DNA of 64,000 nt. It comes from an uncultured Bacilli bacterium. GTDB taxonomy: Bacteria; Bacillota_I; Bacilli_A; RF39; UBA660. Positions within the stretch are counted from its first letter, which is position 1; each line of letters opens with the position of its first letter. The stretch spans positions 192,412 to 256,411 of the forward strand of contig CAKOXO010000002.1 in the NCBI GenBank assembly GCA_934130165.1. Reading direction: 5' to 3'. The position numbers were made by a program, and so were the translations under genes. The notes beneath the pieces are model-generated. The model made no database searches and was not told where the DNA came from. It saw only the letters and a program-made list of their open reading frames with translations. Below are positions 56,383 through 59,938 of the stretch, piece after piece.

Positions 56383-57168
56383 TTATAGATTATTAGTATT
56401 TAACTTATTATCAATATAATTGATAGCGTGCTTTCTAATTTCTTCCATCTTGTTTTTAGTATCCTTAATTTTATAGTCAATTCTATCTACCAGAATATTT
56501 ATATAATCCTTTTCTTTAATATATTTTAAACCAGAAGAAAAATTATAATCAAAAATAAATGCTATATAAGATACCCAACAATCCATATCAGTTTCTCTTT
56601 CTTTACTTATAATAATTTTATTACTCATAAAATCATTATAGATTTTTTCTGTTATTATATCATTTTCTAATTTTTCTTTTGAAGAATTAAATATATCTTC
56701 AAATCTGTCATTTGCTTTTACTCTAAAATTATCCGTTTTATCAGCATCTCTAATAATTTTTGCGTGTAATAATTCCTTTTCATTAAGCCCATCTTCTATT
56801 TGCAATTTATTGTGATTTTTAATTGACTTTAAAATAATTGAATCATATTTATCCTCTTCAATAAAACTTCTTATTAAATTATCTTCAAATAATATTTTAA
56901 CAGCTAAATCTGCATGATCTACATTTTTATAATCTCTATAATCTCCAAATTCCTTTGCTTGTTCAAATCTAGCAATATCATGCAGTAAAGCAATTAATTT
57001 TGCAAGTTCTATATCTTCGTCTGATAATTTTAAATCCTTTGCAATATATTCACTTAAGGAAACAACACCATAAGTATGTCTTACTTTTAATTTTATCATT
57101 CCATCAGCTAAATCATAACTATTTAAATATTGTTTAAATTCTTTTTGTGCTTTTTTAAAATCAATCAT
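56383..57168 (-). CDS. HD-domain phosphohydrolase (cargo operon gene 6)
   Basis: 261 aa. HD motif LIALLHDIARFEQ. A second His/Asp cluster NVDHADLAVK. Confidence 0.6.
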   Translation of the reverse strand: MIDFKKAQKEFKQYLNSYDLADGMIKLKVRHTYGVVSLSEYIAKDLKLSDEDIELAKLIALLHDIARFEQAKEFGDYRDYKNVDHADLAVKILFEDNLIRSFIEEDKYDSIILKSIKNHNKLQIEDGLNEKELLHAKIIRDADKTDNFRVKANDRFEDIFNSSKEKLENDIITEKIYNDFMSNKIIISKERETDMDCWVSYIAFIFDYNFSSGLKYIKEKDYINILVDRIDYKIKDTKNKMEEIRKHAINYIDNKLNTNNL

Positions 57169-57189
57169 ATTAGTTCCTCCAACTCTATA

Positions 57190-57714
57190 TTATATTTTTT
57201 TTAATAAAATATGTCGTTTAATACTTTCATCTTTTTGATACCAAGTTTTTATTTCGTATCCCATACTTTGAAGATTTTTTAAACTATAATCATTTCCAAA
57301 AGTTACTTCTGCCACAATATTATTGATACCTAATTCTTTGGCTCTTTTCTCTAAATGTTCTACTAATATATTTTGAAGATGATTTCCCCTATATTCAGGC
57401 AATACTATTACACCATCTATATCGGCACATTTTCCTTCTATATCAGGTATATAACTTTTAATTTGTTTCATTCTATTAGATACTGATAAAAATATCCATG
57501 CTATCATTTTATTATCTAAAAATGCGCCATAAATTTCTCCATCATTAATTGGGTCATTAACAATTCTTAAATATGTTGCTTTTTTAAAAGGAAGAAAATA
57601 TCCTTTTTCATTTTCCTTAAAATTATCTATTACAATATTTTCTATTTTATAAATATCATCAACATCATTAGAATCACATAATCTTATTTGTACTTCTTCA
57701 ATATTAATTTTCAT
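57190..57714 (-). CDS. GNAT-family N-acetyltransferase (cargo operon gene 5)
   Basis: 174 aa. Acetyl-CoA binding motif region GVIVLPEYRGNHLQNILVEHL (the Q/R-x-x-G-x-G/A-type motif A). Confidence 0.65.
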   Translation of the reverse strand: MKINIEEVQIRLCDSNDVDDIYKIENIVIDNFKENEKGYFLPFKKATYLRIVNDPINDGEIYGAFLDNKMIAWIFLSVSNRMKQIKSYIPDIEGKCADIDGVIVLPEYRGNHLQNILVEHLEKRAKELGINNIVAEVTFGNDYSLKNLQSMGYEIKTWYQKDESIKRHILLKKI

Positions 57715-57730
57715 ATTATATTTTCCTTTA

Positions 57731-58357
57731 CTATTTAACTTTTTTATTAATGTTTATTTCATTATCGTATATAGTCTTATACTCTTGAAGTTTTTTTATT
57801 GCCCTTGGTAATCCATAATTTGAAGCAAGTTCTAAATAGAATTTAGATTTTTCTAAATCTCTTTCAATACCGACTCCATTATAATAAAAATTTGCACCTA
57901 AATCATATATACCAGCCATATGACCTTTCATTGCACTATCATAGATTAGTTTAAAAGCAGTATTATTGTTTTTTTCTATATCTCCAAAGCCAAAATAATA
58001 GTATGCTCCTAAACAAAATATAGAAAATGCTTGTCTGTTTGGAATATTCTTTTCTTGTTCTATTAATTCTAATAGAGATTGATATGCTTTAACAAAAAGC
58101 TCATGTGCTTTATTTTTATCTTCTTTAACACCATCACCAAAGTAATAACAAGTCCCTACGCCATAAATACATCTAGGATCATCAAGTTCCTTTCCTTTAT
58201 TATACCAGTATAAAGCTTTTTCAAAATTTTGTTTAACACCATTTTCACCACTATCATAACTTCTACCTAATATATAACAAGATAATCCATCACCATTTTT
58301 TGCATTTTCTTCTAAATCAATTATATTAAAAATCATAGGGATAATTTTTTGTTCCAT
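57731..58357 (-). CDS. Sel1-like/TPR-type repeat protein (cargo operon gene 4)
   Basis: 208 aa with repeated A-x-x-W-Y-x-K-A / G-x-x-Y-Y-x-G units (ALYWYNKGKELDD, CYYFGDGVKEDKNKAHELFVKA, AYYYFGFGDIEKN). Confidence 0.5.
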   Translation of the reverse strand: MEQKIIPMIFNIIDLEENAKNGDGLSCYILGRSYDSGENGVKQNFEKALYWYNKGKELDDPRCIYGVGTCYYFGDGVKEDKNKAHELFVKAYQSLLELIEQEKNIPNRQAFSIFCLGAYYYFGFGDIEKNNNTAFKLIYDSAMKGHMAGIYDLGANFYYNGVGIERDLEKSKFYLELASNYGLPRAIKKLQEYKTIYDNEININKKVK

Positions 58358-58372
58358 ACTTAGACCTCCAAC

Positions 58373-58879
58373 TTACTTTATTAATCTCGTTAATATTGAA
58401 TATTTCCAATTTAATGTGGCTGCTTCACAACAATGCTCATACTTAATAATCATAGTTTTAATAAACTCATCATCAATTTTTTTATTATTAGTGATTAACT
58501 CTTTAATTTTTAAATATTCATTTCTAATAGCATTATCATTGAACATTGAACTATCGAGTTGTTTTTCTACTATTCTCAATATATCACTTGCTATTACTTT
58601 TCTTTTATTTTGATTATATATTTCAACATATTTATACATTGATAGAATTGCTAGATATTGATCTTTTTTTATATCATTTAATTGTTGTAATATACCATAT
58701 ATTAAAATTTGATAAAACGTATAAAAAATTGTCATTCTTTCAAGAAAATCTATAAAATTAACAATTTTTGAAAAACGATTAGTGAACATAGTAATAAAAA
58801 AAGAAATACCAATAACTTCCACCAAATATAAAAATATTTGGAAAATGGTTTTAGTAATTAAATAACGCTTTTTTATCAT
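58373..58879 (-). CDS. Membrane hypothetical protein (cargo operon gene 3)
   Basis: 168 aa with two N-terminal TM helices and a cytoplasmic helical C-terminal domain. Confidence 0.35.
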   Translation of the reverse strand: MIKKRYLITKTIFQIFLYLVEVIGISFFITMFTNRFSKIVNFIDFLERMTIFYTFYQILIYGILQQLNDIKKDQYLAILSMYKYVEIYNQNKRKVIASDILRIVEKQLDSSMFNDNAIRNEYLKIKELITNNKKIDDEFIKTMIIKYEHCCEAATLNWKYSILTRLIK

Positions 58880-58892
58880 ACTTTCACCTCAT

Positions 58893-59645
58893 CTATGTTC
58901 TACTCCAATATTCTAATTTTGCTAAAGATAATCCTATTCTATATGAAATCCCAAAATTATATGAAATACTTCGATTAAATATTTCAAGTATATTTTTCAA
59001 ATATATCTCTTGATACATAATTAAAATTTTATTTTCTTTTTCTGATATATTATGAAAATCTGAATAATGAAGATTATTTCTACATTTTCTATTAATTGAA
59101 TAAAATTTTTTATCTATATCTTTTTCATTTTGCTTAAAAACTTCTTCTAGCAAATTAATTGAAGAGTTAGACTTTTTATCATTCCAAAACATTTCTATTA
59201 TAATTGCTTTGGCTTTAGCAATAAATCTCTGAAAATCAAAATGGAATATTCCAATATCAAATGATATTTTTTCTTTTATAATATTATCAATAAATAAAAT
59301 TGTCTTAACTAAACCATATCGTTGAAGTATATATAATTTTTCTTCCTTATTAATCTTGCTTTTGCTAAACAATTTATATGTAGAATATGATTTTCTATTA
59401 ATATTTGTTTTGGAAATTCTTTCGACATACATATTAGATATATCTTTTAACTTTTCTTTTATAATGTCATATATATCCGGCATTAAAATTTCTATCCATC
59501 TTAACGGTGTCGCTACAATTCCATCTATCAATTCAAATTTTTCTTCTTTGCTATACTCCCAATTTCTAAAATTTATATCTAATAAATTTTTATTATTTAA
59601 ATATAGAACTACATCAAATATATAATTATCAAAATCTATTCCCAT
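58893..59645 (-). CDS. Hypothetical protein (cargo operon gene 2)
   Basis: 250 aa soluble protein with no robust motif. Contains RKCRNNLH (weak R-x-n-H resemblance only). Confidence 0.35.
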   Translation of the reverse strand: MGIDFDNYIFDVVLYLNNKNLLDINFRNWEYSKEEKFELIDGIVATPLRWIEILMPDIYDIIKEKLKDISNMYVERISKTNINRKSYSTYKLFSKSKINKEEKLYILQRYGLVKTILFIDNIIKEKISFDIGIFHFDFQRFIAKAKAIIIEMFWNDKKSNSSINLLEEVFKQNEKDIDKKFYSINRKCRNNLHYSDFHNISEKENKILIMYQEIYLKNILEIFNRSISYNFGISYRIGLSLAKLEYWSRT

Positions 59646-59728
59646 CTCATTTATTATTTCATTAGTAGTTAATGATGTATTTGATGGACAATATTTTAGA
59701 TTATGATTTCTAAAATCTTCAATTTCCT

Positions 59729-59938
59729 TTAAAGTGATTTTCTTTTTCCGCTTAAACCACCATATTTGGCTTTTATTGTTTCTTCAACAAAAATGGAAGA
59801 AAAAAATACTAAAAACGAACTTAAAACTTCTTTTTTTTCATAATCAGATATATTTTTTTTAATCTCTAATATATAACCAAGCCAAAAAGCATCATTTAAT
59901 ATTTCATTTACTATTTTTCTTTCTTTATCCTTGTCCAT
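59729..59938 (-). CDS. Small hypothetical protein (cargo operon gene 1)
   Basis: 69 aa ORF heading a closely spaced minus-strand series. Confidence 0.25.
   Translation of the reverse strand: MDKDKERKIVNEILNDAFWLGYILEIKKNISDYEKKEVLSSFLVFFSSIFVEETIKAKYGGLSGKRKSL

Follow-up and report, generated by a model that had tools for sequence, protein, structure and literature searches.

What is encoded by the compact run of minus-strand genes at positions 56383-59938 of the DNA presented above, and do these genes form a single system? The stretch of 64,000 nucleotides analyzed here (hereafter the window) comes from an uncultured Bacilli bacterium (contig CAKOXO010000002.1, positions 192,412 to 256,411) and carries at this place open reading frames (ORFs) for a Sel1-repeat protein, a GNAT acetyltransferase, an HD-domain phosphohydrolase and three further products. 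An earlier note on this DNA had described them as six genes forming one unit. We arrive at a different partition. The genes are cargo on one arm of a Tn4451-type integrative mobilizable element of ~10 kb (50120-60119), inserted at the 3' end of a tRNA-Gly gene, and this cargo is a composite of two independently circulating, uncharacterised cassettes, not one conserved system. Cassette 1 contains an orphan gene of 348 amino acids (aa) and the gene of a 168-aa membrane protein; cassette 2 contains the Sel1, GNAT and HD genes. The element anatomy and the composite origin, taken together, are very probable. To the favoured explanation as a whole, comprising the element cargo, the two cassettes and the functional inferences drawn from them, we assign a probability of roughly 60%.

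Gene content of the cargo

The cargo is made up of the following features, listed in the direction of reading.

58893-59938, minus strand: orphan 348-aa gene of cassette 1, a pseudogene in the window, split by a -1 frameshift into the 69-aa and 250-aa ORFs
59729-59938, minus strand: ORF of 69 aa, the 5' part of the 348-aa gene; no Pfam match
58893-59645, minus strand: ORF of 250 aa, the 3' part of the 348-aa gene; no Pfam match
58373-58879, minus strand: ORF of 168 aa, cassette 1, a membrane protein by hydropathy; no Pfam match
57731-58357, minus strand: Sel1-repeat protein of 208 aa, core of cassette 2; Pfam Sel1, E 2.5e-24, three repeats
57190-57714, minus strand: GNAT acetyltransferase of 174 aa, core of cassette 2; Pfam Acetyltransf_1, E 6e-12
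56383-57168, minus strand: HD-domain phosphohydrolase of 261 aa, last gene of the operon, in the hydrolase slot of cassette 2; Pfam HD, E 5e-12, and HDIG

All six ORFs announced by the earlier note were recovered, and its Sel1, GNAT and HD assignments, like its description of the other three as orphans, agree with the Pfam results. The number of genes nevertheless falls to five, since the 69-aa and 250-aa ORFs are two pieces of one frameshifted gene, the first of the operon and a pseudogene in the window. Homologues of the 250-aa ORF are nearly all 343-356 aa long, and one of them (P0001, 348 aa, 99% identical) covers the 69-aa ORF, the 83 nucleotides (nt) that follow it and then the 250-aa ORF. 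The lesion lies in an A-run at 59738-59741, which reads AAAA in the window versus AAAAA in intact copies, a deletion of 1 nt; the window sequence is GGAAAAAGAAAATCAC, that of intact copies is GGAAAAAGAAAAATCAC, and the protein reading resumes in another frame. The gene is intact in three related loci (L023-25). A GGAGG-like Shine-Dalgarno sequence precedes the true start of the 348-aa gene as well as the 168-aa, Sel1 and HD genes, that of the GNAT gene being weak. No such sequence precedes the internal ATG from which the 250-aa ORF is read. The gap of 83 nt at the 69/250 junction is thus an artefact of the frameshift: the spacing of 13-21 nt reported earlier holds for the four real intergenic gaps (13, 15, 16 and 21 nt) and fails at this junction. 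Because its products are on record on several contigs from several sources (the exact 250-aa protein on 14, the exact 69-aa protein on 6), the frameshifted allele is no one-off error.

Two cassettes of separate circulation

The comparison base for the cargo was a set of ~170 related loci, cited here by L numbers. Relatives of the 348-aa protein were followed in 53 genome loci, searched with all element proteins, and relatives of the GNAT protein in 65 metagenome loci at 67-99% identity. Not one of the 53 genome loci has a Sel1, GNAT or HD gene near the 348-aa homologue, and the 168-aa partner itself occurs in only five of them, downstream in L027-29 and upstream in L036-37. Seen from the other side, the full five-gene set, and with it the 348-aa and 168-aa pair, is present in only two of the 65 GNAT loci, both copies of the same element, and the HD gene in only six, all copies of this element. 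The single unit seen by the earlier note does not survive these counts.

Sibling elements bring the separation onto one backbone. In L026 the relaxase (88% identical) and recombinase (76%) are those of our element, and the cargo consists of the 348-aa gene and two small ORFs only. In L085-87 and L089, which make up four of the six HD copies, the same backbone carries Sel1-GNAT-HD behind an unrelated 303-aa membrane protein, and the 348-aa and 168-aa genes are replaced. This 303-aa protein has several N-terminal hydrophobic helices and no Pfam or PADLOC match; it also precedes a Sel1-GNAT-208aa-serine hydrolase arrangement in L079 (4424-5335). Cassette 1 likewise occurs in other company. In L009-12 a radical-SAM/SPASM gene and an HMUDK_hel gene come after the 348-aa and 168-aa pair (63% and 67% identical); a 33% identical relative of the 348-aa protein stands alone beside a restriction-modification cluster in L013, and a 57% identical one is also alone in L016.

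Anatomy of the mobile element

The earlier note had placed the genes inside a mobile element, and this is confirmed by a recombinase, a relaxase, terminal repeats and a tRNA gene as integration target. Outside the cargo, the element and its boundaries comprise the features below.

50052-50125, plus strand: tRNA-Gly(UCC), integration target, found by ARAGORN; its 3' end overlaps the left repeat
50120-50131, no strand: left 12-bp direct repeat GCTCCATTGAGG, attL core; an exact repeat at which homology with other copies begins
50218-50541, plus strand: 107-aa ORF at the recombinase end, ~70% identical to a 99-aa gene of sibling copies; no Pfam match
50759-52498, plus strand: large serine recombinase of 579 aa, for integration and excision, 96% identical in sibling copies; Pfam Resolvase (E 1e-35) and Recombinase (E 3e-18)
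52502-53461, plus strand: Q_salvage gene (queuosine salvage, DUF2419); Pfam PF10343, E 2.5e-44; specific to this element variant
53520-54739, minus strand: IS3-family insertion sequence with orfA (54377-54739) and orfB (53520-54329); Pfam HTH_28/HTH_Tnp_1 and rve
54863-55054, plus strand: 63-aa ORF directly 5' of the relaxase gene, kept in all copies at 90-100% identity
55057-56292, plus strand: Mob_Pre (MobV-type) relaxase of 411 aa; Pfam PF01076, E 8e-29; convergent with the cargo operon
60108-60119, no strand: right 12-bp direct repeat GCTCCATTGAGG, attR core; the element end, just past which the flanks of copies diverge

The 12-bp sequence occurs exactly twice in the window, versus 0.04 copies expected by chance, and the DNA identity with other element copies begins and ends at these repeats. 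Core chromosomal genes lie to the left of ~50100 (DnaE, signal peptidase II, BipA, a GH3 hydrolase and a DedA/VTT protein). In L024 the element copy adjoins the same tRNA, and the flanks differ among L004, L006, L007, L023 and L024. The recombinase and Mob_Pre backbone is common to more than 15 metagenome copies at 91-100% identity. Most sibling copies carry a 212-aa and a 231-aa gene of unknown function where the window has Q_salvage; the variant with Q_salvage and IS3 is also found in L002, and IS3 is missing from most sibling copies.

This layout matches that described for Tn4451-type integrative mobilizable elements (PMC5704250). As in Tn4451 and Tn4453 of Clostridia, with their TnpX and TnpZ, a large serine recombinase sits at one end, a Mob_Pre (MobV) relaxase is present, mating-pore genes are absent, the size is ~10 kb, the flanking repeats are short and the cargo is swappable. 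For type IV secretion, inspection of the 10-kb element left no long ORF unaccounted for as a possible coupling-protein or pore gene, no dedicated search being part of this result. The likeness to Tn4451 is one of layout and domains: unlike Tn4451, the element carries neither catP nor another resistance gene, shows no detectable TnpV, TnpY or TnpW homologue, and has a 12-bp repeat at a tRNA 3' end instead of a 2-bp core. TnpV was without a match among the Pfam-scanned ORFs of the element, a scan that leaves out the 63-aa ORF, and was found only in neighbouring or other elements; the Tn4451-related TnpV is carried by neighbouring tandem elements in L024 and L079.

Two observations concern the integration site. 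Site-specific serine-recombinase mobilizable elements are described in a review as integrating within protein genes, which they disrupt, and as having very short repeats (PMC5704250); here a 12-bp exact repeat rebuilds the end of tRNA-Gly at the insertion of a serine-recombinase element. In L001 (1-20753) and L024 (1-16200), tandem accretion has placed two to three related serine-recombinase/Mob_Pre elements at one site in head-to-tail arrangement, some of these neighbours carrying TnpV and NikA-like genes. Just outside our element, a 75-aa fragment of a YhcG PD-(D/E)xK nuclease (60421-60648) is a pseudogene remnant; an 89-aa low-complexity ORF rich in Ser, His, Thr and Gly lies on the opposite strand (60681-60950), adjoined by small membrane proteins at 60963-61505 and 61546-62082.

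The cargo operon runs inward from the right repeat toward the relaxase gene. Terminator prediction over 56200-60300 gave no terminator-like site; a stem-loop near 56335-56375 occupies the 90-nt gap between the HD gene and the convergent mob gene. A perfect TATAAT is located ~35 nt ahead of the start codon of the 348-aa gene; the promoter scan itself is uninformative in such AT-rich DNA (38 sites versus 37.5 expected), the G+C content of the window being ~25% throughout. A single transcript is likely, predicted to start at ~59975, downstream of attR in the direction of reading, to proceed inward and to end at the stem-loop before the relaxase gene.

Cassette 1, an orphan family and its membrane partner

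With 167 representatives at 50% identity in a collection of 1.84 billion proteins, the 348-aa family is small and sharply bounded; its members come mainly from genomes of uncultured gut Clostridia and Bacilli. An AlphaFold2 model of the protein (pLDDT 92.9, pTM 0.91) is mostly helical with three small beta-hairpins and has no significant fold neighbour in the PDB or in a viral structure library. Comparison of the family with Pfam, PADLOC and PHROGs returned only scattered, single-member or near-threshold matches; among 54 members, PADLOC produced two isolated ones, to PDC-M01B (E 8.8e-05) and to ShosA (E 0.05). Searches of PDB sequences with the family profile and with a C-terminal domain profile gave noise only, and tblastn of the protein against annotated plasmids and phages gave nothing, as did megablast of the whole region against the same collections. 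The family has many polar residues that vary little or not at all, among them the motif NR[KR]xR[ND]N[LI]HY, and this conservation suggests an enzyme. A subgroup of relatives of 443-458 aa (P0320-P0332) possesses an extra N-terminal domain of ~100 residues.

Several identities were considered for this family. A phage origin finds no backing in IMG/VR, which gave one distant match (25%) for the 348-aa family and none for GNAT. A PD-(D/E)xK nuclease was envisaged from conserved D109, D121 and N123 near the beta-hairpins and then dropped, as no such nuclease was recognised among the fold matches listed. A NUDIX-like nature of the N-terminal extension was likewise abandoned, as hhalign against the GNAT-fused NUDIX domains gave a probability of 0.4% and Pfam nothing. 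The protein resembles HEPN abortive-infection proteins (Abi_2/AbiD-F) in being mostly helical, ~350 aa long and located in mobile-element and defence-island contexts, and its conserved motif formally fits the Rx6H signature of HEPN; the best-conserved Arg-His pair is, however, a non-canonical Rx3H. Neither HEPN nor Abi families figure among the Pfam and PADLOC matches of the family, structural scores are at noise level and the C-terminal domain profile finds nothing in the PDB. A HEPN identity is an unsupported lead.

The earlier note gave the 168-aa protein two transmembrane segments, which hydropathy supports only in part. One is strong (approximately residues 7-35, Kyte-Doolittle >1.5); the second, an aromatic-rich segment at approximately residues 46-66, peaks at only ~1.1, and the C-terminal part of the protein is soluble. 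Homologues of this protein (57-67% identical) adjoin 348-aa homologues in L009-12, L027-29 and L036-37 and are absent from the other loci: the 168-aa protein is an optional partner of the 348-aa gene.

A census of the two nearest ORFs on each side of 348-aa genes, covering 149 ORFs at ~45 loci, identified mobility genes (five serine recombinases, four tyrosine integrases, two Mob_Pre), defence-type genes (three to five DUF4379/PDC-S02, then PDC-S04, AbiLi, SoFic and MADS components) and also methyltransferases, ParE and AAA_21. The setting of cassette 1 is mobile elements and defence islands. In L009 (9619-11569), the radical-SAM/SPASM gene is weakly similar to prokaryotic viperins over its first ~100 residues, and its HMUDK_hel neighbour corresponds to the helical domain of 5-hydroxymethyldeoxyuridine (5-hmdU) DNA kinase; this pairing beside the 348-aa and 168-aa genes suggests a function that involves nucleotides or DNA modification.

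Frequent inactivation of the 348-aa gene

The frameshift of the window is one of at least four independent lesion types in near-identical copies: a -1 change in the A5 run (the window, L002 and L003), a +1 change in a T-run (L001, L005 and L008), a -1 change in the same T-run (L007) and a GAA to TAA nonsense mutation (L006). These copies had been chosen for the broken allele, and the listing of clusters at 90% identity is less biased. Among the cluster members listed, the 348-aa gene is full-length on ~128 contigs and truncated (250, 218, 196 or 159 aa) on ~39, and truncated forms of its neighbours amount to 13 of ~476 for the 168-aa gene, 5 of ~257 for Sel1, none of ~479 for GNAT and 2 of ~383 for HD. 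On these figures, loss of the 348-aa gene is about ten times as frequent as that of the other genes of the operon, a preferential loss that fits a costly or conditionally useless gene. Programmed frameshifting or phase variation was entertained, as lesions at two homopolymers fit slippage, but the nonsense allele and the several truncated lengths point to plain loss of function.

Cassette 2, a GNAT-Sel1 core and its hydrolase partners

The Sel1 gene is adjacent to the GNAT gene in 40 of the 65 GNAT loci, in either order. The arrangements include GNAT-Sel1-serine hydrolase (19 loci), GNAT-Sel1 (6) and Sel1-GNAT (5), besides others, that of the window being Sel1-GNAT-HD; GNAT is alone in 14 loci. 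A PF06821 serine hydrolase is adjacent in ~32 loci. In 19 loci GNAT carries an N-terminal fusion with a canonical Nudix box (GX5EX7REUXEEXGU), for example in a 347-aa ORF of L140. A Nudix box is found no more than 2.6 kb away in 29 loci, some lineages having it fused to the serine hydrolase (L082 is an example), and none of the HD-bearing copies among these 65 loci showed one. In at least 19 of 38 long GNAT loci, a recombinase, relaxase or TnpV gene occurs within 6 kb. In one lineage, GNAT follows a protein with a faint KAP_NTPase match. On our reading, the conserved core of cassette 2 is GNAT plus Sel1, and the third slot is taken by an exchangeable hydrolase. Adjacency of GNAT and Sel1 down to 67% identity, in two orders and with NUDIX fusions, argues for functional coupling. 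The NUDIX fusion is the only clue to a substrate class, and from it we infer a nucleotide-containing substrate.

In this element lineage only, the slot is filled by an HD protein from an otherwise chromosomal gene family. The protein scores 46.5 bits with PF01966, above the cut-off of 22, and 32.5 bits with HDIG, above that of 27.6. Residues H31, H63-D64, H85, H119, H135 and D141 are invariant in the family alignment, and on this conservation it is probably an active metal-dependent phosphohydrolase. The family has at least 3981 matches at E<=1e-5. Relatives at 70-83% identity are ordinary chromosomal genes with no GNAT or Sel1 gene nearby: an 83% identical member lies between secDF and relA/dtd (L020, 6001-6780) and a 70% identical one after a deoxycytidine monophosphate (dCMP) deaminase gene. 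The L020 context suggests that the family has a housekeeping function, perhaps one in nucleotide metabolism. On annotated plasmids, only 36% identical genes labelled 'HD domain-containing protein' were found, on Clostridium butyricum megaplasmids. The exact HD protein of the window is present on 252 contigs, mostly from human-gut samples, and the cargo is thus common in human-gut metagenomes.

The GNAT protein has no match in a PDB sequence search and none among annotated plasmids, and the Sel1 protein has no apparent signal peptide. PADLOC-DB v2 applied to the window genes gave weak partial matches only, in which Sel1 aligned with positions 1-54 of PtuA and HD with Cas3-HD (E 4e-4). The check with PADLOC that had been proposed for the region therefore yielded no meaningful defence-system match, and the statement that the genes belong to no recognised pathway agrees with Pfam, PADLOC and NCBIfam, which assign them to no known pathway or defence system. 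The closest association is with PDC-M37, a PADLOC candidate to which the DolB ATPase of Dodola is related. In L082 (6001-9937; also L102-104 and L166-168), within a tyrosine-integrase island, a 78% identical GNAT lies directly upstream in the order GNAT, serine-hydrolase-NUDIX fusion, PDC-M37A (E 2e-76) and PDC-M37B (E 5e-136). In gut Firmicutes, two more genes may therefore be associated with PDC-M37. The window differs in that the PDC-M37A and PDC-M37B genes are absent, and for GNAT, which has no PADLOC model, the link is one of neighbourhood only. The GNAT-Sel1-hydrolase arrangement is a widespread module, often NUDIX-fused, which no defence, resistance or metabolic catalogue covers.

Proposed functions and alternative explanations

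Our proposal for cassette 2 is that it would act on a nucleotide-bearing small molecule or a nucleotide-linked substrate. GNAT would transfer an acetyl group from acetyl-CoA, cleavage of a phosphoester, pyrophosphate or ester bond would fall to HD (elsewhere NUDIX or the serine hydrolase), and Sel1 would serve as scaffold or adaptor, the outcome being protection of the element or host, for example by detoxification or by removal of a nucleotide signal. Cassette 1 would be a costly, dispensable pair of the defence or exclusion type, in which a soluble enzyme or sensor acts with a membrane partner, inactive in this copy. On neighbourhood association only, a defence or stress role, the guess of the earlier note, is possible for each cassette. 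These functional inferences for both cassettes together are tentative and would more readily fail than hold.

A number of points weigh against our reading. For none of the five proteins does homology indicate a substrate or phenotype: NCBIfam matches of GNAT (RimI, AAC(6') and streptothricin acetyltransferases) are all far below cut-offs, and the HD protein has no match in the PDB as a single sequence, its family profile retrieving only generic HD proteins at E ~0.04. The exchange of NUDIX or serine hydrolase for HD concerns one element lineage and could be a chance juxtaposition. The metagenome loci are non-independent samples and the allele counts come from 15 listed members per cluster; slippage-prone homopolymers, not selection, could lie behind the excess of broken 348-aa alleles. 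The census of defence-type neighbours lacks a formal background control, and the mobile-element context is a confounder. Co-transcription of the five genes, although likely, is a prediction from layout.

The most far-reaching reading would make both cassettes genuine new immunity-related systems. The 348-aa protein, with or without its 168-aa membrane partner, would be an abortive-infection or exclusion protein of new fold, whose cost would explain its repeated inactivation, and GNAT-Sel1-hydrolase a new module for acetyl-CoA-dependent modification and degradation of a nucleotide signal or toxin, used in defence or anti-defence during transfer. We consider this possible, if doubtful.

At the other extreme, the genes could be unrelated passengers accreted under one promoter and devoid of any joint function: a xenobiotic or antibiotic acetyltransferase, a captured housekeeping HD gene, a repeat protein and two orphans. 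The modular cargo swaps among sibling elements, the ordinary chromosomal HD relatives, the weak likeness of GNAT to AAC(6') and streptothricin acetyltransferases, and the landing of IS3 and Q_salvage in the window copy all speak for such accretion. The conserved GNAT-Sel1 adjacency, in its two orders and with its NUDIX fusions, speaks against it, as do resistance-family scores so far from their cut-offs, and we regard it as unlikely.

In conjugative plasmids, anti-defence genes cluster around the origin of transfer (oriT) and the relaxase gene (PMC11541004), and cassette 2 lies next to a relaxase gene, occurs for the most part in islands with a recombinase or relaxase gene and has nucleotide hydrolases, NUDIX or HD, as partners. 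It might accordingly be an anti-defence or establishment module that destroys or modifies a nucleotide signal or cofactor of the recipient's immunity upon arrival of the element in a new host. Against this, its proteins show no homology with known anti-defence proteins, and the operon would be a late arrival should mob be transferred last. Viral contigs yielded no member of the GNAT family, although a large share of the anti-defence genes known comes from phages. Acetyltransferase and Nudix families are not mentioned in PMC11541004. Such a role seems quite improbable.

A single new multi-gene anti-phage system, with a sensing role for Sel1, effector roles for GNAT and HD and accessory roles for the orphans, would account for five genes on the same strand with gaps of 13-21 nt, Shine-Dalgarno sequences before most of them, a mobile setting, a set that travels together in every copy of this variant, and defence-type genes near relatives of both cassettes. 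Its components are, however, not co-conserved beyond one element lineage of at least 94% identity, sibling backbones have one cassette without the other, PADLOC offers nothing meaningful, and the first gene is broken on about one quarter of the listed contigs with the other four intact, which is unexpected if all are needed. A single system of this kind is very unlikely.

The earlier note had called the GNAT toxin-like in size, and tRNA-acetylating GNAT toxins are indeed of a size similar to its 174 aa. Like TacAT, AtaRT and KacAT, which are GNAT/RHH systems, it is a small protein of ~170 aa on a mobile element, and mobilizable elements can carry addiction systems (PMC5704250). The pairing of GNAT with a second gene, in variable order, also speaks in favour. 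Least credible of all, nonetheless, is an addiction module stabilising the element with GNAT as toxin and Sel1 or the hydrolase as antidote: its partners are a Sel1-repeat protein and hydrolases, its neighbours include no small antitoxin ORF of the DUF1778/RHH type, the upstream gene being Sel1 (208 aa), no toxin-family profile is among the Pfam and NCBIfam matches listed, GNAT is alone at 14 of the 65 loci, unexpected for an unneutralised toxin, and GNAT is never truncated on ~479 contigs among the members listed.

Biological significance

Nothing in this analysis demonstrates a new mechanism. The element backbone is that of an ordinary mobilizable element, and its cargo comprises two uncharacterised modules lying outside all catalogues. 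One of them includes the 348-aa protein, a compact orphan family with a confidently predicted structure that is preferentially lost from otherwise intact operons. If the cassettes do act in immunity or counter-immunity, they would constitute a new cargo class for the integrative mobilizable elements of uncultured gut Firmicutes; if they do not, the locus still illustrates the shuffling of cargo cassettes on one backbone.

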